From assembly GCA_018646705.1 (NCBI GenBank), contig JABGUG010000009.1, positions 1 to 54,756 of the forward strand: DNA of 54,756 bases, written 5' to 3'. The notes below the pieces were generated by a model. The model worked only from the letters and a program-made list of their open reading frames with translations, had not been told where the DNA came from and made no database searches. Shown here one piece after another: positions 2,220-53,576 of the stretch (the stretch's first letter is position 1; every line of letters begins with the position of its first letter). The position numbers and the translations under genes were made by a program. Origin of the DNA: Candidatus Parcubacteria bacterium (GTDB lineage: Bacteria; Patescibacteriota; Patescibacteriia; Magasanikbacterales; UBA922).

Positions 2220-2650
2220 ATCCCGAACGCAGTGAGGGATCTTTCCTAAAGAAAAATGTCTTATGTACAACACGTGGGGAAGACAAATTATTATGTTTAT
2301 ATTTTAAGTAGTCTTAATGGCGTTATTTATGTTGGTTTTACTGATTGTCTTGTAAAACGTATTAAACAACATAAAAATGGTTTGTACAAAAATGCTTTTA
2401 CTAAAAAGTATAACGTACATAAACTTGTATATTGGGAACATTATTTTTTAAGGCAGGATGCATTAAATAGAGAGCAGCAGATAAAATCGTATAATCGAAA
2501 TAAAAAAATAAATTTAATTGAAAAAGATAATAAACATTGGAATGATCTCTACCCTTTCATTATAGAATTGTCTAAGAGGCGTCCAATATTTTAGCAAATT
2601 AAAACATGTCATCAAAAGGAAAGATCCCTCGTAGCTCTGCTTCTCGGGAT
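2220..2650. mobile_element. candidate gene-bearing member of repeat family Rep-B (inverted arms flanking a GIY-YIG gene)
   Basis: Left arm 2220-2246 is ATCCCGAACGCAGTGAGGGATCTTTCC. The right arm 2618-2650 reverse-complements to ATCCCGAGAAGCAGAGCTACGAGGGATCTTTCC. They share the outer ATCCCGA and the inner GAGGGATCTTTCC. Confidence 0.35.
2256..2594 (+). CDS. small stand-alone GIY-YIG (URI-domain) nuclease family protein
   Basis: 112 aa with YYVYILSS..GVIYVGFT..LVKRIKQHKNG, the GIY-YIG core pattern. Size is typical of YhbQ/COG2827-like proteins. Confidence 0.85.
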   Translation: MSYVQHVGKTNYYVYILSSLNGVIYVGFTDCLVKRIKQHKNGLYKNAFTKKYNVHKLVYWEHYFLRQDALNREQQIKSYNRNKKINLIEKDNKHWNDLYPFIIELSKRRPIF

Positions 2651-2923
2651 GGTGTAAAAGTTGAAGTCTGTTGTGGTGAAAATTGTTCAGCCAGAAATTC
2701 ACAAAAAGTTTTTGATACTTTGAAAAAAGAATTTGAAAATACAGAGAAGTGCGGTTGTCTAGGAAATTGTGGTAAAGGTCTCAATGTTCTTATTGACGAA
2801 AAGAGAATTTTGCATTATAGTAAAGAGCATAATATAGTTGAGCGCGTCAAAAGTGATGAAGGAGAAGTATTCAAACGTTTTACTGAAGAAGAACTAACAG
2901 ACGATTTTTTAAAAGATATTTAG
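2606..2923 (+). CDS. thioredoxin-like [2Fe-2S] ferredoxin-domain protein
   Basis: Cys spacing C-x4-C (CCGENC), then about 33 residues, then C-x3-C (CLGNC), as in NuoE-type 2Fe-2S domains. The first ~15 codons (SKGKIPRSSASRDG) are translated from the Rep-B right arm. Confidence 0.6.
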   Translation: MSSKGKIPRSSASRDGVKVEVCCGENCSARNSQKVFDTLKKEFENTEKCGCLGNCGKGLNVLIDEKRILHYSKEHNIVERVKSDEGEVFKRFTEEELTDDFLKDI

Positions 2924-3219: not shown

Positions 3220-3239
3220 CTATTTTTATAGCTTTTTTA
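3218..3239 (+). terminator. weak AT-rich hairpin plus T-run after the ferredoxin gene
   Basis: AGCTAT-TTTT-ATAGCT followed by TTTTTT. Confidence 0.35.
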
Positions 3240-3332
3240 TTTATGTAAGATTATATACCCCCATCTCGTTTAATATAGTGAAGAATCATTATATTTGAAA
3301 AGAGAACGTATAAGGGGGACAGATCATTATTT

Positions 3333-3833
3333 ATGACCGCAGAGGAGAGAAAAAATGAATACGTGTCACTCTATAACGAATATACTGATCAAATATTTCG
3401 CTATTTTTATTTTCGTGTATATGAGCGTGAGAGAGCACTTGAATTGTCTCAAGAAGCATTTATTAGATTATGGAAATATGTAGCCTCTGGTAAAGAAATA
3501 GAACATCTCAAAGCATTGTTGTATAAAATTTCTCATAACCTTGCTATAGATGAAAGTAGAAAGAAAAAAGCATACTCACTTGATAACTTAATGCAAGATG
3601 GGTTTGAAATTCCAACAAATTTGAAAGATGAAAGAAATGATAAATTGGATGTGATGGCAATCTTACAAGAAGTAGAAGGAATAGGGGAGAGATATAAAGA
3701 AGTTATACTTTTGCGTTATGTAGAAGGAATGATGGTAAAAGACATTGCAGTAATACTTGAAGAATCTGAAAATGTCATTTCAGTACGACTACATAGAGGT
3801 ATAAAACAATTGTCAGAAAAATTTAAAGAATAA
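3333..3833 (+). CDS. ECF-type sigma-70 family RNA polymerase sigma factor
   Basis: 166 aa. Region 2-like (QEAFIRLWKY..) and region 4-like (EVILLRYVEGMMVKDIAVILEESENVISVRLHRG) segments. The partner gene starts 1 nt after its stop. Confidence 0.8.
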   Translation: MTAEERKNEYVSLYNEYTDQIFRYFYFRVYERERALELSQEAFIRLWKYVASGKEIEHLKALLYKISHNLAIDESRKKKAYSLDNLMQDGFEIPTNLKDERNDKLDVMAILQEVEGIGERYKEVILLRYVEGMMVKDIAVILEESENVISVRLHRGIKQLSEKFKE

Positions 3834-3834
3834 T

Positions 3835-6153
3835 ATGGAAGAATTATTTGAAAAATTCAATAAATCAACCAAGAATATACGCCTTAGTAATAAAGAGCGT
3901 GATCAAATGGATCATATAGTTACTGCTGTTATGGATGAATTTCCTATCCAAAAAAAGGTTGAAACAAAACAAAAAGAAAAAAAGGTAAAGATAGAAAAGC
4001 CTTTTAGATTTTTTGGTTTGCTTCCAGAAAAACTTGCTTACGTGGCACTCATGTTTGTGATTGTTGTAGGAACTGGTGCTGGTACTGCTTTTGCATCAGG
4101 AGATGCTTTGCCTGGAGAGTTTCTCTATGGTTTCAAAGTAGATGTGGTAGAAGAAGTAAAATCAAAATTTCTTTCTTCATCTCAAGCAAAAGCACAATAT
4201 GCATCAGAGCGTGTACTTATGAGATTACAAGAGATCCAAGAGCTTATTGATACAGATGTAGAGATTGATGACAAAATTATTAGAAAGGTAAATGAAAAAG
4301 TAAAAGAACATAGTAAGGGTGTTGTGCGTGCTACTGGTTCATTGCAAGAAGATGGTGACTCTGAAGCAATTATGGATGTTATTGAAGATCTCCAAGAATC
4401 ACTTGGTGCTTATAATAAATTATTGTTATCACTTATTGAAAAGGAAAATGACTTACGTGTAGTATCTAAATTGTCTGATGTATTAGAAAACATGGAAGCA
4501 ACTGAAAAAGCAGCTAAAACTGCTCAGATTGAACTTGTTGTTGGAGATGATGAAGATTATGTACACGAAACAGAAGGTAAATCAAAAACTACAACAGGTA
4601 GTCTACTTACTACAGGTGTTTCAAAAATAAATATATCTGCCCCATATGCAGGTGACGAAATTATGATAGGGACACCATTATCAGTTGTATGGGAAGTTAC
4701 AGAAGAGCCTAAAACCGATTTGTTTATATATGTAGAATTATGGGATGATGAAGGGTCTTTTGTAGGGTATATGAAATATGGTCAGGCCACTGCACGAGAG
4801 CACATTGCAAAAGGAATGGTATTCAATTGGAATCCAAAATATGTTTTTAGAATTATTTCAGGACAGGTAAAATGGGTAGAAATTAATCCTGGAAAATATC
4901 GTATTCGTATTTCTACAACACGAGAATACAGATCAAAAATAGTTGAATACGAAGGAGAGACTGGAGTATTGTATATACAAAGACCTCCATATGTAATATC
5001 GGGTAATACATCACCTGCAGAGACAAAGATCGTAGAAATATCAGATAGCGCAAGTTCTGGAGAAAAAAACCCTACTGAAATATCAAATGAACGTAGATTG
5101 ACTATAAGTATGCCACACAATTATTCTAGGTTGAAAATTGGGCAACAAAGTCAAATTTGGTGGAACGTCAATGACAATAATAAGGAAAACGCTCCAGGAT
5201 ATGTTCGTTTGGTAAATGCTGACTTACCTAATGAGAAACGCAATATTACATTTCTAGATAATCTTGCAAACAATCCCAAAGATTCTAATAAAACATGGTG
5301 GGGTAATGGATTTGCTCTTTGGACTGTGCCAAATGGTGTTACACCAGGAAGATATTATATTGAAATAGGCGATCGTTATGATAGTAATTTTTATGCACGA
5401 AGTTTTACATTTATTATATATGAAGATGTAGAAGCCAAGGTAGAAGTTTCACAAAAGCACATTGGCCCAATGAATATTTATGTTGGTCAAAATCATGTAA
5501 AGATTGCAGAGTTTGAAGTGCGTACGAATAAACCTGTAGCTCTTACCAATCTTAGAGTTTCATGTAAGTCTTCAAGTGGTCCACAATCGTTTGATAATAT
5601 GATGTTAGAATCTTCTTTGCAAGATAAGTATCAAACAAAAAGAGTTTCCATGATGTATGATGAAGAAAGTGTGTCATTTACTGGTTGGGAGTTTTATGGA
5701 GATAGAAATAAGCGTCATATTATTGAAGACAGAGAGGTGTTTTATGTTTATGCAAATATAAATTCTATTTTAGAAACGTCAGTAATGTCATGTGGTTTGT
5801 GGGAGTCAAATAGAATTAGTTTTTATGACTATGACAAGAAAAAAACTATTTCCGGAGATGGGCTTGCGTCATTTAATCATGGTTTTTCAGGAGTATTTGA
5901 TATCATAGGACAAAAATCTGAAGATTGGGATAAAAAAACTCCATACTATCTCACCTATGAATACCTTCAGATTTTAGAAAAAATTGGTATAGATCCATCT
6001 TCTATGCCGGAAAAAATGACATACCCATTGAGAGATTGTCTTGTAGGGCAGATTGGATTGAAAAGGTATGATACACTTTGGTATCAAAGAGATAAAGTAT
6101 CACTTGATGATGCATGGAGAGCATTACCATGTGCGAAATATTTGTCTAACTAA
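3835..6153 (+). CDS. single-pass membrane protein, putative anti-sigma partner with a large extracytoplasmic domain
   Basis: 772 aa with a short cytoplasmic N-terminus, one TM (AYVALMFVIVVGTGAGTAFA), a coiled-coil stretch and then a beta-rich region. Placement directly after the ECF sigma gene suggests the role. Confidence 0.5.
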   Translation: MEELFEKFNKSTKNIRLSNKERDQMDHIVTAVMDEFPIQKKVETKQKEKKVKIEKPFRFFGLLPEKLAYVALMFVIVVGTGAGTAFASGDALPGEFLYGFKVDVVEEVKSKFLSSSQAKAQYASERVLMRLQEIQELIDTDVEIDDKIIRKVNEKVKEHSKGVVRATGSLQEDGDSEAIMDVIEDLQESLGAYNKLLLSLIEKENDLRVVSKLSDVLENMEATEKAAKTAQIELVVGDDEDYVHETEGKSKTTTGSLLTTGVSKINISAPYAGDEIMIGTPLSVVWEVTEEPKTDLFIYVELWDDEGSFVGYMKYGQATAREHIAKGMVFNWNPKYVFRIISGQVKWVEINPGKYRIRISTTREYRSKIVEYEGETGVLYIQRPPYVISGNTSPAETKIVEISDSASSGEKNPTEISNERRLTISMPHNYSRLKIGQQSQIWWNVNDNNKENAPGYVRLVNADLPNEKRNITFLDNLANNPKDSNKTWWGNGFALWTVPNGVTPGRYYIEIGDRYDSNFYARSFTFIIYEDVEAKVEVSQKHIGPMNIYVGQNHVKIAEFEVRTNKPVALTNLRVSCKSSSGPQSFDNMMLESSLQDKYQTKRVSMMYDEESVSFTGWEFYGDRNKRHIIEDREVFYVYANINSILETSVMSCGLWESNRISFYDYDKKKTISGDGLASFNHGFSGVFDIIGQKSEDWDKKTPYYLTYEYLQILEKIGIDPSSMPEKMTYPLRDCLVGQIGLKRYDTLWYQRDKVSLDDAWRALPCAKYLSN

Positions 6154-6169
6154 ATATAGTTCAAAAATA

Positions 6170-6221
6170 AAAACAGCCTATACGTAGGCTGTTTTTTTGT
6201 TGAGACGCGATAAATCGCGTC
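6170..6221. terminator. bidirectional terminator region between convergent genes
   Basis: AAAAACAGCCTA-TACG-TAGGCTGTTTTTTT has A/T runs on both sides. The perfect palindrome GACGCGATAAATCGCGTC (6204-6221) lies next to the clpB stop. Confidence 0.7.
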
Positions 6222-6227
6222 CTTACT

Positions 6228-8873
6228 TTACTTTTTTATTTCTATTTTGTCTTTTACCACATCAACTTTTACACTATCACCCTCATCAATTTTCTTTTCA
6301 ATTATTTTCATAGCAAGGGGATCGAGTAATTTGGTTTGAATCACACGCTTTAGTGGTCGTGCACCAAGATTTTCATCATAACCTTTTTCAGAGAGCCAAT
6401 CTTTGGCTTTTTCAGTTATATTAATTTTTATCTTTTGTGCTTCAAGTCGTTTTGTAACAAGTTCAAGTTGAAGATCAACAATAGATCGGATTTGTTCTTT
6501 TTCAAGTGTGTGGAAAATAATGATTTCGTCAACACGATTTAAAAATTCTGGTTTAAAGTGTTCACGAAGTTGATCCATGACACGATCATTTATTTTTTCT
6601 TCTTTTTGTTTGGTTCCTTTTTTACCACTCGTTTTTGCCTCAAATCCAAAGTCACCTTTGCGTCCGAGTGAAACAATAAGTTCACTCGCAATGTTACTGG
6701 TCATTATGATGACAGTATTTTTGAAATTTACTTTTCGTCCCTTAGCATCAGTAAGATGTCCATCTTCTAGAATTTGTAACATAACATTGAACACATCTGG
6801 ATGAGCTTTTTCTATTTCATCAAAAAGTAGAACTGAGTAAGGTTTGCGTCTCACAATTTCAGTTAGCTGTCCACCTTCATCAAATCCTATGTATCCAGGA
6901 GGGGATCCGATCATTTTGCTCACGGCGTGCTTTTCCATATATTCACTCATATCTACTCGTACCAGTGCTTCTTCGTCATTGAATAAGAATTCTGCAAGTG
7001 TCTTTGCAAGTTCAGTTTTACCAACACCAGTAGGACCCATAAAGATGAAGGATCCGATAGGACGTTTTTCTTCTGAAATACCCGCACGACTTCTACGAAT
7101 TGCATTTGATACAGAAGTGATTGCTTCTGCTTGTCCTACGACACGTTTTTTGAGCTCGTCTTCCATTGTAGCAAGTTTTATTACTTCGTCTTGAAGCATT
7201 TTACTCACTGGAATTCCTGTCCATCGTGCGACAACACCTGCAATATCTTCTTCAATAACTTCTTCTTTCAAGATACTAGATTTTTTTTGTAAGTCAGCAA
7301 GTTTTTCTTCATATTTTTTTATAGCTTCTTCGATCATTGGAATTTTTCCATAACGAAGCTCAGCTACTTTTTGTAAGTCACCTTTACGTTCTTCTATTTC
7401 TGCTTCTTGCTTTAGTTTATCAATTTGTTTTTTATTATCTCTAATCTTAGTAATAATTTCTTTTTCATTTTGCCATTTCATTTCAATTTCTTTGCTCTGA
7501 TCTTTTAAATTTGCAAGCTCTTCTTTTAGTTTTTTCTGACGTTCTTTACTGTCATCATCTTTTTCTTTGTGTAGAGCTTTTAATTCAATTTCAATTTTCA
7601 TCATTTGGCGTTTCATTTTATCAAGATCATCTGGCATAGAGTCGATCTGCATTTTGAGTGCACTAGCTGCTTCATCAATTAGATCAATTGCCTTGTCTGG
7701 TAAGAATCTGTCAGTAATGTAGCGACTTGATAGATGAACTGCTGCCACAAGTGATGGGTCTGTAATTCGTACACCGTGATGTACTTCATATTTTTCTTTG
7801 ATACCACGCAAGATTGCGATTGCATCTTCCTCGCTTGGTTCAGTGACAAGTACTGGTTGGAAACGACGTTCAAAAGCAGCATCTTTTTCAATATGCTTTT
7901 GATATTCTTTCAAAGTGGTTGCACCGACCATGTGTAGTTCGCCACGTGCAAGACCAGGCTTTAGCATGTTACTTGCATCCACTGCACCTTCTGAGCTTCC
8001 TGCACCTACAATAGTATGTAGCTCATCTATGAAGAGCACTATCTTACCTTGTGCATCAGTAATTTCTTTTATTACTGCTTTGAATCTTTCTTCAAACTCA
8101 CCTCTAAATTTTGTTCCAGCAAGAAGAGATCCGAGATCAAGAGAAATAATTTCTTTGTCTTTCAAATTTTCTGGCACATCTCCATTTACAATACGTTGAG
8201 CTAGACCTTCTGCAATAGCAGTCTTACCAACACCAGGCTCACCAATGAGTACAGGATTGTTTTTTGTACGTCTTGTAAGCACTTGCATGACACGACGAAT
8301 TTCATCATCACGTCCAATGACTGGATCGAGTTTTTCTTTTCGTGCACGTTCAGTCAAATTAAGCCCATACTTTTCAAGCGCTTGGTAAGTGCTTTCTGGA
8401 GTAGGGGAATCAACACGCTGTGTTCCGCGAATTGTTTTCAAAACATTCAAAATATCGTCATACTGGACGCCTTGTCGTGATAGGGCGTCGCTTACTGGGT
8501 TTTTGTTTGTAAGAAATGATAAAAGGAGGTGTTCTACAGAAATAAAATCATCTTTCATCTTCTTTGCTTCTTTGTCTGCATTTTGCAATATATATAACAT
8601 GGATTGACCAAGCATCACCTGGCCCATTCCACCACCTTGGATCTTTCCTGGTTGTTTTGTAAGCCCATCAATCATTTTTTGTGTTTCTTCCTTCAATTCT
8701 TCAATAGTCGCATTTAGTTTTTTGAAAATAGAAATAACAACACCTTCTTCTTGGTTGAGAAGGCTTAAGAATAGGTGAGGAGGTTCAACTTGTGGTTGAC
8801 CATTCTCATTAGCGATTCCCTGAGCCGTTTGAATAGCTTCCTGGGATTTATTGGTAAAGTTCTGAGGCATCAT
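6228..8873 (-). CDS. clpB: ATP-dependent chaperone ClpB (two AAA+ modules with a coiled-coil middle domain)
   Basis: Walker A motifs GEPGVGKT and GPTGVGKT, with a long coiled-coil insert between the modules. Start moved from 9011 to ATG 8873 ([15 protein letters not shown]) because the first 46 track codons read through Rep-A copy 2. Confidence 0.92.
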
Positions 8874-8908
8874 ACGCTTGTCTTTTATAGAAATATATTT
8901 TTGAATAT

Positions 8909-8984
8909 TGAGATACGGATTTCCAGATAATCCAGATTTACAGATATTACATCCGTAAATCTGGATTATCTGTATATTAGGATA
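8909..8984. repeat. Rep-A copy 2 (inverted orientation relative to copy 1)
   Basis: Perfect 18-bp arms CAGATAATCCAGATTTAC (8924-8941) and GTAAATCTGGATTATCTG (8955-8972). It lies in the clpB 5' leader. Confidence 0.9.
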
Positions 8985-9004
8985 GTAAAAAACAGGTAAG
9001 TTAT

Positions 9005-11096: not shown

Positions 11097-11861
11097 ATGT
11101 TATCACAAAAAATTCAAAAACATCTCAAACAACTCCAACAAAAAAAGTTTCGTAAAGAGTTTGAAGAGTTTATTGTTGAAGGAGTAAAAGGAGTTGAAGA
11201 GGGTCTTAATTCTGATGCTGACGTAGCTTTACTTGTAGTAGAAGGAAACAGAAGGGATGAAAATGATATTGCAGAACTTATTACTCTGGCAGAAAAAAGT
11301 GAAATACCTGTGGAATTTTGTGGTCGCAAAGATGTCGACGACATAAAGACTACAGACACTTTTCCTGGAGTTCTTGCAGTAATTGGTCAAGAGCAACTTG
11401 ATCTCGAGGATGTGGTGGAAGGTCCTATCATTTGCCTAGATGAAGTAAAAGATCCAGGAAATCTTGGAACAATTATTCGTACTGCAGATTGGTTTGGTAT
11501 AAAAAATATTGTACTTAGTGAGAAATGTGTTGATGTATACAATCCAAAAGTAGTAAGAAGTACTATGGGCTCTATTTTCCATGTAAATATTTTGCGTTCT
11601 GAAAATATCTCAAAGACGCTGGAAAGATTAAAAAAAGAATTTGAATATGAAGTAAATGCCCTTGATATGGAAGGTAAAGACATTACTAAATTGAAACCAA
11701 AAAACAAAGCAGTATATCTATTTGGAAGTGAGTCTCATGGTGTTTCAGATGCCCTTGAAGAGCTAATAGATAACCGTTATACTATATCAGGGTCTGGAGA
11801 TGCAGAATCGCTTAATTTGGCTATTTCTGCAGGGATTTTAATGTCACGATTGTCATCCTGA
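11097..11861 (+). CDS. TrmH/SpoU family RNA 2'-O-methyltransferase
   Basis: SpoU motifs NLGTIIRTADWFG, FGSESHGVS and LNLAISAGILM. The last two codons and the stop (TCA TCC TGA) come from the Rep-B arm. Confidence 0.85.
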   Translation: MLSQKIQKHLKQLQQKKFRKEFEEFIVEGVKGVEEGLNSDADVALLVVEGNRRDENDIAELITLAEKSEIPVEFCGRKDVDDIKTTDTFPGVLAVIGQEQLDLEDVVEGPIICLDEVKDPGNLGTIIRTADWFGIKNIVLSEKCVDVYNPKVVRSTMGSIFHVNILRSENISKTLERLKKEFEYEVNALDMEGKDITKLKPKNKAVYLFGSESHGVSDALEELIDNRYTISGSGDAESLNLAISAGILMSRLSS

Positions 11862-11973
11862 ATCCCGTAGAGGGTGAAGGATCTTTCCGAAGATGAAATT
11901 TACTTAAGTCAACAATCAATAATCTATAATTGAACGAGGTAGGAGAGATTCTTCGCTTCGCTCAGAATGACAG
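11850..11973. repeat. Rep-B locus (two inverted arms around an AT-rich spacer)
   Basis: Left arm TTGTCATCCTGAATCCCGTAGAGGGTGAAGGATCTTTCC. The right arm GGTAGGAGAGATTCTTCGCTTCGCTCAGAATGACAG is the reverse complement of GTCATTCTGAGCGAAGCGAAGAATCTCTCC. Confidence 0.85.
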
Positions 11974-25903: not shown

Positions 25904-26036
25904 TTGTCATTCCGACCAAAGTCACGACGTTAGGAGTGGCGAAGTGGAGGAATCCCTTTCTTAAGAAAAATTAGTTTTAAGAAAGGGATTCCTCGACTCC
26001 AACTTCACTTCGTTTCGTCGTCGCTCGGAATGACAA
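25904..26036. repeat. Rep-B locus: 133-bp imperfect palindrome
   Basis: Outer arms TTGTCATTCCGA and TCGGAATGACAA. Inner perfect 18-bp arms GAGGAATCCCTTTCTTAA (25947-25964) and TTAAGAAAGGGATTCCTC (25977-25994) around a 12-nt loop. Confidence 0.9.
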
Positions 26037-27087: not shown

Positions 27088-27207
27088 TTGTCATCCTGAA
27101 CGTAGTGAAGGATCTCTCCCACTACGAATTTTTTTGATCTGTAATTGTTGAATTAAAAATATTTAGTTTAAGAAAGATTCTTCGTCGTCCCTCCTCAGAA
27201 TGACGAA
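27088..27207. repeat. Rep-B locus
   Basis: Left arm TTGTCATCCTGAACGTAGTGAAGGATCTCTCCC. The right arm TTAAGAAAGATTCTTCGTCGTCCCTCCTCAGAATGACGAA has an AT-rich spacer between it and the left arm. Confidence 0.85.
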
Positions 27208-36663: not shown

Positions 36664-36784
36664 ATCTCGAATCCGAACGGTAGTGAGTGGTGAGAGATCT
36701 TTTTTACCTGGTACCCCTTTTATACGTAGGATGGCAAGTTATAGAAAATCTATCTTAAGAGAGATTTCTCACTATGTTCGAAAT
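36664..36784. repeat. Rep-B locus (divergent arms)
   Basis: Left arm ATCTCGAATCCGAACGGTAGTGAGTGGTGAGAGATCT. The right arm CTTAAGAGAGATTTCTCACTATGTTCGAAAT reverse-complements to ATTTCGAACATAGTGAGAAATCTCTC. Confidence 0.7.
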
Positions 36785-48493: not shown

Positions 48494-48590
48494 GTCATTT
48501 TTAACAGAATTAAGTAAAGTCGAGGAATACCCTTTTTTACAATATCTTTGCAAAGAAAGGGATTCCTCCGCTCGTCTACAACTCAGTTAC
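48494..48590. repeat. Rep-B locus (divergent)
   Basis: Inner arms GAGGAATACCCTTTT and AAAGAAAGGGATTCCTC. The right arm reverse-complements to GTAACTGAGTTGTAGACGAGCGGAGGAATCCCTTTCTT. Confidence 0.65.
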
Positions 48591-51995: not shown

Positions 51996-52002
51996 AAAAT
52001 TA

Positions 52003-52084
52003 GATTCTGATATACAGATAATCCAGATTTACAGATTTATCCGGATTTTTATCCGTAGATCTGAATTATCTGGAAATCAGTATG
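52003..52084. repeat. Rep-A copy 3 (degenerate, longer loop)
   Basis: Arms CAGATAATCCAGATTTAC (52015-52032) and GTAGATCTGAATTATCTG (52055-52072) form one mismatch and one G-U pair. It fills nearly the whole atpA-atpG spacer. Confidence 0.85.
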
Positions 52085-52088
52085 TCAA

Positions 52089-53576
52089 TTATTTTTTAAA
52101 CTCATTACATGCACTCTTCAAATCAGCCTCGATTTTGTCATCCCATTCCCCTACTTTTATTTTATCAAGTAGTGCACGTTTTGTTTTGTTCATGAATTCA
52201 ATTAATTTTACTTCTGTTTCTGCAACATCTTTTACTTCTACATCATCAAATACACTATTATTTACTGCAAAAATTACTGCAACTTGATCCTCTACACTCA
52301 TTGGTGAATATTGAGGTTGTTTCATAAGTTCTGTAATACGATAACCAAGATCAATTTGTTTCTTGGTATCAGCATCGAGATCACTTGCAAATTGAGCAAA
52401 CGCTTCAAGTTCACGAAACTGTGCCATAGCAAGTTTGATCTTACCTGCAACCTTTTTCATAGGTTTGATCTGAGCTGCACCACCTACACGTGATACTGAG
52501 AAACCAACACTTACTGCTGGACGAATACCTTTGTAGAAAAGATCAGTTTCAAGGAAAATCTGACCATCAGTAATAGAAATAACGTTTGTAGGAATATAAG
52601 CTGTTAAATCACCTGCTTGAGTTTCAATAATAGGAAGTGCTGTAATAGAACCCCCACCGTTTTCTTTGTTAAGGTTACACGCACGTTCAAGAAGACGTGA
52701 GTGAAGATAAAATACGTCACCCGGATAAGCTTCACGACCTGGTGGACGACGAAGCAATAGTGAAATTTCACGATATGCCCATGCTTGTTTAGTCAAATCA
52801 TCATAAACAACAAGTACATCCTCACCTTTGTCTGCAAAATATTCTGCAATAGCAACTCCAGCATATGGAGCAATAAATGACATAGATGCCGGATCACTAG
52901 CTCCTGCAACAACAACAGTTGTATATTCCATAGCACCAGATTCTTCAAGTTTTGCTACGATACGAGCAACTTTGGATTCTTTTTGACCAACAGCCACATA
53001 GACACATTTCATGTTTTGGCCTTTTTGATTGATAATTGCATCAACTGCAATAGCAGTTTTACCAGTTTGTCTATCACCAATAATAAGTTCACGTTGTCCA
53101 CGACCAATAGGTACCATAGCATCAATAGATTTGATACCAGTCTGAACAGGTTCGTGTACTGGTTCACGTGTCATAACACCAGGAGCAATCTTTTCTACTG
53201 GATAAAAATCTTTAGTAGCAATATCACCTTTTCCATCAATCTCTTGACCGAGTGCGTTTACTACTCGTCCAACCATTTGTTCACCAACAGGTACAGAGAG
53301 AATTCGACCAGTACGTTTCACTGTGTCACCTTCTTTAATCCCTCTAAATTCTCCCAAGATCATGGCACCAACAGTCTCTTCTTCCAAATTCAAAGCCACA
53401 CCCATGACTCCGCCAGGAAATTCAAGCATCTCTTGTGCCTGACATTTAATTAATCCATTCATACGAGCAATACCATCACCAACTTCGATAACAGTACCGA
53501 CTTCCTCCACTTCAACGGTTTTTTCAAACGCGCTGATATTCTTTTTCAATTCTTCAACGATTGCATTTGTAGACAT
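52089..53576 (-). CDS. atpA: F-type ATP synthase subunit alpha
   Basis: [10 protein letters not shown]-loop and a conserved alpha-subunit core. Confidence 0.95.

Follow-up and report, generated by a model that had tools for sequence, protein, structure and literature searches.

The Ssn family comprises single-domain GIY-YIG nucleases of ~94 amino acids (CDD cd10448), of which enzymes from Neisseria, N. elongata, N. wadsworthii, and Wolbachia have been characterised (Chenal et al., Nat Commun 2025, PMC11893778). The ssnA gene is the only gene systematically flanked by the NTS repeat (CGTCATTCCCGCGMAVGCGGGAATCYRG), which is a subset of the Neisseria dRS3 repeats, and the SRM motif lies near 71% of the homologues and on both sides of 42% of them (PMC11893778). 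We are interested here in a 54,756-nucleotide stretch of DNA from a Candidatus Parcubacteria bacterium (contig JABGUG010000009.1; hereafter, the window), in which a small GIY-YIG nuclease gene is bracketed by two inverted copies of the genome's commonest hairpin repeat, which recurs in the same stretch. The locus is very likely a member of the Ssn nuclease/SRM system, equipped with a divergent, short-stem version of the repeat.

SsnA binds and cuts its motif solely as single-stranded DNA (ssDNA), on one strand only and a few nucleotides upstream (PMC11893778). For binding, the palindrome matters and, most of all, the C adjoining its 3' side; cleavage is governed by the three nucleotides preceding the palindrome, the loop can be dispensed with, and RNA is not bound (PMC11893778). 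In N. meningitidis, the enzyme reduces transformation by NTS-containing DNA (PMC11893778). The SRM pattern, HGTCWYN(0-2)YYVSBRHN(0-5)WNVSBRGN(0-2)RNCYNB, was built from 29 genomes of four phyla, and the discussion of the same study calls the NTS-ssnA-NTS layout "identical to" that of insertion sequences and proposes a RAYT/REP-like domestication (PMC11893778). Earlier, "CGTC/TGTC-tagged REPs" had been described as mostly inverted dimers for which no dedicated transposase was found, in a superfamily that includes Neisseria dRS3 and Rickettsia RPE-4 and RPE-6 and spans five phyla, none of them from the candidate phyla radiation (Di Nocera et al., BMC Genomics 2013, PMC3733652). The layout itself was published in 2025 (PMC11893778) and the repeats were catalogued in 2013 (PMC3733652). 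The original prediction, made from the letters of the window, held that small YhbQ-like GIY-YIG proteins were not known to have been described inside inverted repeats, and this has to be given up, as NTS-ssnA-NTS is exactly such an arrangement. New are the probable Patescibacteria member of the Ssn/SRM system, a short-stem repeat class missed by the published pattern, a cassette whose ends match the arm ends in an iron-sulfur (Fe-S) operon, and a site with three occupancy states.

The nuclease gene, its arms, and the repeat family

The window has a G+C content of 34.8% and is ~93% coding, and the homologues of its NifU and GIY-YIG proteins reside mostly in Magasanikbacteria (Patescibacteria) genomes. 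The nuclease gene lies in a cellular operon. Its immediate surroundings are as follows, where L-numbers denote homologous loci in other genomes and dN/dS is the ratio of nonsynonymous (dN) to synonymous (dS) substitutions.

2220 to 2246, plus strand: left arm, half-element ATCCC-GA-acgcagt-GA-GGGAT-C-TTTCC, conserved at the orthologous locus L018
2256 to 2594, plus strand: ssn-like gene for a 112-residue single-domain GIY-YIG nuclease, based on Pfam PF01541, the alignment, and a dN/dS of 0.06 against L018
2618 to 2650, minus strand: right arm, half-element ATCCC-GA-gaagcagagctac-GA-GGGAT-C-TTTCC, with the prefix ACC in place of GTC
2606 to 2653, plus strand: cassette-derived start and N-terminal extension (MSSKGKIPRSSASRDG) of the ferredoxin open reading frame (ORF) at 2606-2923

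The left arm (ATCCCGAACGCAGTGAGGGATCTTTCC) begins right after the NifU stop codon, and the right arm reads ATCCCGAGAAGCAGAGCTACGAGGGATCTTTCC as its reverse complement. Both face inward, and each is built as a small hairpin, ATCCC...GGGAT, with C and a TYTCC tail behind it. The 13-mer GAGGGATCTTTCC, common to both arms, was found six times with up to two mismatches against 0.84 expected, and none of 100 shuffles reached six. The predicted bracketing of the gene by inverted arms was confirmed in sequence and coordinates, well beyond chance. At L018, the right arm carries a compensatory double change (ATCCC/GGGAT to ATTCC/GGAAT), and the stems of both arms are intact.

The 112-residue protein matches PF01541 over the full length of the profile (E=1.5e-13, residues 11-86, profile positions 1-78 of 78). 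The catalytic residues are intact, with Y15, Y25, R35, H39, E73, and N92 invariant among the aligned homologues. Homologues usually comprise 94-96 residues with Tyr7/Tyr18/Glu65, spaced identically to the mutated residues Y6/Y17/E64 of the 94-residue SsnA from N. meningitidis (CAX49033.1). In the subclade of the window protein, the GIY and YIG tyrosines stand one residue closer together and the C-terminus is extended by ~12 residues (...ELSKRRPIF). The window protein is 51-58% identical (E 1e-22 to 1e-24) to the proteins of L036 (Magasanikbacteria, 58% identical), L082, and L088, all three of which are flanked on both sides by the exact Neisseria NTS (with at most one mismatch).

The association with arms extends far beyond this genome. 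Relatives turned up in at least 573 of the 599 genome stretches matched by the pattern, and the 80 loci kept for analysis span Proteobacteria, Bacteroidota, Acidobacteriota, Chloroflexota, Nitrospirota, Planctomycetota, Ignavibacteria, many Patescibacteria, and others. We defined an arm strictly as GTC followed by a perfect stem of at least 5 bp starting with AT and then C, located within 200 nt of the gene and facing inward. Among the 84 homologue genes covered, such arms occur on both sides of 32, on one side of 24, and beside none of the remaining 28; the frequencies of two-sided and at-least-one-sided arms (56/84) are near the published 42% and 71%, and arms are ~31 times as dense beside the gene as they are, per strand, at distances beyond 500 bp. 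The systematic flanking that the original prediction had proposed to look for is thus present. Local alignment of upstream flanks with reverse-complemented downstream flanks likewise recovered inverted TGTCAT-stem-loop-stem-ATC arms at most loci. A 57%-identical homologue in another Magasanikbacteria genome, residing in the unrelated context HIT, NUDIX, gene, epimerase, has ATCCT...AGGAT-CTTTC arms on both sides. Within the clade of the window protein, seven gene copies in six genomic contexts all carry ATYCY-GA...GA-RGRAT-CTTTC arms on both sides, including two-sided inward arms at L018, L010, L013, L015, L016, and L019.

The same half-element, with the consensus (T/C)GTC - AT YYY - GA ... 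GA - RRR AT - C - TYTCC, recurs in the window as four clean inward-facing gene-less pairs and one decayed pair, besides the gene-bearing pair. All five copies without an ORF that had been listed in the original prediction exist, although the one at 48494-48590 is decayed. We designate these doublets d2 to d6.

11852 to 11888, plus strand: left half of d2, GTC-ATCCT...AGGAT-C-TTTCC, encoding the last codons and the stop of a TrmH-like gene
11942 to 11971, minus strand: right half of d2, GTC-ATTCT-GA-GCGAAGC-GA-AGAAT-C-TCTCC
25906 to 25960, plus strand: left half of d3, GTC-ATTCC...GGAAT-C-CCTTTC subtype with a long loop, resembling the L102 cassette arms
25981 to 26034, minus strand: right half of d3
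27090 to 27119, plus strand: left half of d4, GTC-ATCCT-GA-acgtagt-GA-AGGAT-C-TCTCC, 77% identical to the left arm of the gene
27171 to 27204, minus strand: right half of d4, CGTC-ATTCT...AGAAT-C-TTTCT
36664 to 36704, plus strand: left half of d5, without GTC tag, ATCTC...GAGAT-C
36758 to 36784, minus strand: right half of d5, without GTC tag, ATTTC-GA-acatagt-GA-GAAAT-C
48494 to 48590, no strand assigned: decayed doublet d6, CCCTTTC subtype, with tails retained and 5' stems degenerate

For an unconstrained check of the hairpins, we used the 3' tail motif alone as the query and then sought a complementary 5-mer with GA within 60 nt upstream. Ten of the 17 matches have a perfectly complementary 5-mer with GA, and these ten are the arms of the five intact pairs, whereas in shuffles such matches averaged 0.06 and never exceeded 1. 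(A hairpin scan without the GTC tag was uninformative in this 35% G+C genome, with hundreds of chance matches.) The ten arms contain six stem sequences, ATCCC, ATCCT, ATTCT, ATTCC, ATCTC, and ATTTC. As all six are self-complementary, it is the pairing that is conserved and not the sequence. All stems are 5 bp long and begin with AT, with tandem GA on either side; the loops measure 11-35 nt. All ten arms have the 3' C, and 6/8 gene-less arms have GTC (as TTGTCAT or CGTCAT). Half-elements never occur singly in the window, where all copies are inward-facing dimers, and every copy is intergenic, as had been predicted, often touching a start or stop codon and in several cases donating one.

By analogy with the characterised Ssn enzymes, the cognate site of the 112-residue protein would be the hairpin half-element repeated through the genome, on which the protein presumably acts as those enzymes do on theirs. 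It would bind the hairpin only in ssDNA, requiring the palindrome and the adjoining 3' C, and would cut a few nucleotides 5' of the GTC tag on the same strand, so that the opposite strand, duplex DNA, and RNA would not be substrates. Its cellular role may lie in the processing of incoming or replicative ssDNA. The gene-less doublets would be further target sites.

Probable entry into the Fe-S operon and past movement

Relatives with ~84% identical NifU carry the operon Rrf2, NifS, NifU, DUF59 (FeS_assembly_P), thioredoxin-like 2Fe-2S ferredoxin, and 4Fe-4S ferredoxin. Both in the window and at L018 (82% nucleotide identity), the arm-gene-arm unit stands where the relatives have the DUF59 gene, which occupies 3178-3465 in L093, 2066-2362 in L095, and 3277-3564 in L097, the three relatives examined (loci L093-L098); no DUF59 homologue was found elsewhere in the 54.7-kb window. 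NifU homology reaches the stop codon at 2219, and ferredoxin homology starts from residue 17-18 (V17/K18), at about nucleotide 2654, and the outer arm ends at 2220 and 2650 coincide with the cassette ends. The thioredoxin-like 2Fe-2S ferredoxin ORF has its start codon, ATG 2606, within the cassette and continues through the right arm. The arm had been thought to supply the first ~15 codons of this ORF; it provides codons 5-15, whereas the start codon is cassette-derived and lies outside the arm. Ferredoxin orthologues in the relatives begin with MGVKKIEVCC or MEEKHIEKVEVCC and lack the cassette-derived extension, and the 3-nt and 6-nt indels in the right arm at L018 leave the ferredoxin frame intact. 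By these comparisons, arm, gene, and arm behave together as a discrete cassette that was inserted, which would have entered the Fe-S operon as a unit, displacing the DUF59 gene and the first ferredoxin codons.

Two other features were observed. The window genes at 3220-6160 for an extracytoplasmic function (ECF)-type sigma factor and a 772-residue DUF5667 protein, located behind the ferredoxin genes, have no blastn match in the 12.3-kb L018 locus, where only ~390 bp (6943-7332) separate the conserved flanks. A second, unrelated intergenic repeat, a near-perfect palindrome of ~80 nt with 15-bp stems (ATAATCCAGATTTAC...), lies at 1461-1540, 8908-8987, and 52002-52089; one of these copies resides between nifS and nifU, and L018 also has copies.

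The nuclease genes of the window and L018 differ by a dS of 0.68 and a dN of 0.042, giving the dN/dS of 0.06. The L018 gene, which belongs to the closest other genome, contains a 1-nt deletion in a T-run (6186-6192) that shifts the frame. As the downstream frame is still 90% conserved, the deletion probably reflects an error of assembly or else a change or inactivation of very recent date. Within the species, we found no variation: six contigs with the cassette and seven with d2, from different samples, match the window exactly. This pattern is, as judged from sequence comparison, the signature of a resident functional gene and not of a recently transposing element. Vertical inheritance under strong purifying selection would have made the cassette behave as a resident host gene and not as a jumping element.

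The gap between the conserved gene pair TrmH-GltX, which holds d2 (11852-11971) in the window, offers a view of the same site in relatives. We scanned metagenome contigs with the GltX protein encoded downstream of d2. The gap is without the repeat in at least eight relatives (L100, L101, L103, L104, L107, L108, L111, and L114; nine with L105). In L102 (763-1192, identical in L113), it holds a full cassette, with both arms GTC-tagged around a 107-residue GIY-YIG gene whose product is 44% identical to that of the window. The comparison of empty and filled sites that the original prediction had suggested hence yielded three states, empty, doublet-filled, and cassette-filled. The left junction codon is common to the window and L102 (..ILMS-R/S-LSS, with LSS encoded by TGTCATCC). 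The window and L102 do not form a sister pair in the GltX tree, where genomes with empty sites lie between them, so that two gains at one spot or several precise losses are needed. As for other contents of the gap, L101 and L105 have another short repeat (ttattccttattcc...), palindromic in L105, and L099 has an unrelated insert of ~375 nt, in each case upstream of position 1201; the gap is a general hot spot.

Arm signatures also tie doublets to cassettes. The right half of d2 together with its inner flank GAGGTA matches the right arm of the L010 ssn cassette at ~36 of 39 nt, and the left and right tails of d2 and that cassette agree in orientation. Doublets d3 and d6, whose tail is CCCTTTC, are of a subtype similar to the L102 arms (z 8-12). 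Over the whole set of loci, the gene-less repeats located beyond 300 nt of an ssn gene are arranged in 33 inward pairs, compared with 9 outward and 10 tandem ones. These similarities support a relationship of the doublets to gene-bearing cassettes, probably as cassettes minus the gene or as copied arm pairs, and point to past mobility of the cassettes. The earlier suggestion that the short palindromes are derivatives survives in this respect, since they are related to cassettes and are mostly inward pairs, as a deletion model predicts. The similarities do not show the nuclease to be the mover, and recombination after DNA uptake is an equally possible route. A trace of such events may be seen in L010, where a relic of an epimerase start (MHLLVTGGAGF...) lies just outside the right arm (3385-3440), followed by the intact epimerase gene (MRLLITGGAGF...); the relic may have been left by the insertion or by recombination with donor DNA.

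The three-state site, the boundary match, and the shared left and right arm signatures are consistent with mobile Ssn cassettes. We can therefore consider, tentatively, that Ssn cassettes are or recently were mobile units with the doublets as their deletion or copy derivatives, which would make them a second, independently evolved REPIN/RAYT-like system built on a hydrolytic GIY-YIG nuclease; we regard this as possible rather than probable.

It is unlikely that the cassette is a currently active autonomous transposon, with the GIY-YIG protein as its transposase and the doublets as copies mobilised in trans in the manner of miniature inverted-repeat transposable elements, as the term "autonomous element" in the original prediction would imply if taken literally. 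The idea draws on the insertion sequence (IS)-like layout, on cassettes in differing contexts of related genomes, on the coinciding cassette and arm ends, on the three states of the TrmH-GltX gap in non-sister lineages, on the near-identity of the right half of d2 to the right L010 arm including the inner flank, and on the predominance of inward gene-less pairs; L016 and L049, moreover, have two closely spaced gene copies each. However, the 54.7 kb contain a single gene copy, whose locus is filled in a relative at a dS of 0.68 under purifying selection, and neither the cassette nor d2 varies among the contigs sampled from the species. No target-site duplications were seen at the doublet ends, and site occupancy differs only between distant relatives. 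The GTC cleavage determinant is missing from the gene arms in 7/7 clade copies. To our knowledge, GIY-YIG enzymes hydrolyse DNA and have no strand-transfer or covalent-intermediate chemistry. As the window arms are true inverted copies, their cleavable strands would be opposite, unlike those of IS200/IS605. Current transposition of the cassette is thus not supported by these comparisons, and the reading of the locus as a resident Ssn/SRM member is the one we retain.

We also considered a multicopy element in L083, L084, and L086, which belong to one metagenome-assembled genome of Gammaproteobacteria, and rejected it, because an adjacent IS and duplicate contigs explain the pattern. These contigs stop ~115 bp past an identical ssn gene, upstream of which lies the 3' end of an IS-type transposase ORF. 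The unit repeated there consists of the IS together with ssn, and L084 and L086 seem to be duplicates of one contig.

Evidence weighing on the assignment

Several observations weigh against placing the locus in the Ssn/SRM system. The NTS pattern (with at most one mismatch) and the SRM pattern have no match in the window, and the stem is 5 bp long compared with 8-9 bp in the published sites. The GTC tag is absent from both arms beside the gene, where TAA and ACC take its place. In nearest-neighbour DNA folding, single arms reach -1.6 to -4 kcal/mol, which is not better than shuffles. The Ssn assignment of the protein is putative and rests on its NTS-flanked homologues.

The lack of SRM matches is a limit of the pattern, which assumes a longer, G+C-rich stem, and not of the biology. 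The folding model leaves sheared G.A pairs and GNA loops unscored. Loops such as GA-GCGAAGC-GA and GA-ACGTAGT-GA contain motifs of non-canonical DNA stability, namely GNA triloops closed by sheared G.A pairs. Since single arms fold no better than shuffles, our claim of a hairpin rests on complementarity and covariation and not on energy. As whole doublets, only d3 is clearly stable (z=-8), and arm-to-arm pairing is consequently not the conserved feature.

As for the missing tag, it is shared by the gene arms of all seven clean-armed copies of the subclade (the window, L018, L010, L013, L015, one of the two copies in L016 (L016a), and L019), which keep the hairpin, the GA...GA, and the 3' C. 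By the rules established in Neisseria, the enzyme could bind the hairpins beside its own gene yet not cut them, and the arms may thus be "disarmed". Coding constraint is an alternative reason, because in the window the NifU stop codon and a ferredoxin codon occupy the tag positions.

We consider it very improbable that the protein has nothing to do with the repeats and is either a free-standing homing endonuclease of the GIY-YIG type or a housekeeping nuclease of the YhbQ/UPF0213 type. The GIY-YIG fold is common, and the protein does match T5orf172 weakly (E=0.0027) and, among solved structures, where no Ssn structure was matched, the UPF0213 structures 1ZG2 (E=5e-7) and 1YWL (6e-3). Against this, its 112 residues include no DNA-binding extension of the I-TevI type, NCBIfam, PADLOC, and PHROGs gave no match to it, and the locus lies in a cellular operon. 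The 51-58% identity to NTS-flanked proteins is far closer, and the association with repeats is systematic. The label "YhbQ-like" given in the original prediction was accordingly imprecise. UPF0213/YhbQ proteins share the size of ~100 residues and the single GIY-YIG domain, whereas their sequence match to the window protein is weak (1ZG2), and we know of no repeat association for that family.

That the arms are ordinary terminators or mRNA-stabilising hairpins with an unrelated nuclease gene between two of them is the least credible explanation, even though all copies lie at gene boundaries and d3 can form a long hairpin, since half-elements in the window are always paired and the gene thus sits inside a pair, the flanking recurs in other contexts and phyla with ~31-fold enrichment and correct orientation, no T-run follows the arms, a terminator scan left them unflagged, an Rfam scan of the whole window matched no family, and the published enzyme does not bind RNA.

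Apart from these repeats, the window contains two diverged direct repeats, 42833-42987/43808-43962 (155 nt, 74% identity) and 43604-43676/43709-43781 (73 nt, 71% identity).

Comparison with known systems

If the Ssn/SRM assignment holds, the orphan hairpin repeats of a candidate-phyla-radiation genome gain a likely protein partner. Since the published pattern misses the short-stem class, current Ssn/SRM censuses are probably underestimates. The three-state site and the exact boundaries supply comparative evidence for movement, which was only raised in the discussion of the 2025 study (PMC11893778); this evidence is useful but incremental and does not overturn the current understanding. For biotechnology, every divergent pair of Ssn enzyme and hairpin is a candidate source of a new specificity with which to cut ssDNA at defined sites.

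The IS200/IS605 "peel and paste" elements resemble the cassette in their subterminal hairpins, which are recognised as ssDNA and cleaved a short distance away, but they employ an HUH enzyme, and both of their hairpins act on the same strand. The REP/REPIN-RAYT (TnpA-REP) system is closer in organisation, having a vertically inherited, single-copy nuclease gene between hairpins recognised on ssDNA and a genome seeded with inverted doublets. Its enzyme is, however, an HUH Y1 transposase that forms a covalent intermediate, and its repeats bear a GTAG tag, in contrast to the GIY-YIG hydrolase and the GTC tag of the window, and the resemblance is one of functional analogy, not homology.

The CGTC/TGTC-tagged REPs share with the window repeats the unpaired (C/T)GTC tag, first pairs of A-T and T-A, a short unpaired tail, the arrangement as inverted dimers, and the intergenic location, sometimes extending into coding ends. 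They differ in having stems of 8-9 bp and loops of 4-5 nt, compared with 5 bp and 11-35 nt here.

The Ssn/SRM system itself differs from the window in its hosts, as the main text of PMC11893778 names no Magasanikbacteria-like Patescibacteria lineage, and, besides the stem length, in that the gene-less copies of the window are all inward pairs and its gene arms lack GTC. The likeness concerns the whole layout, a single-domain GIY-YIG gene of ~100 residues between inward-facing oriented hairpins whose repeat is scattered through intergenic DNA, together with the AT-started stem, the C behind the stem, and, in 6/8 gene-less arms, the GTC tag.

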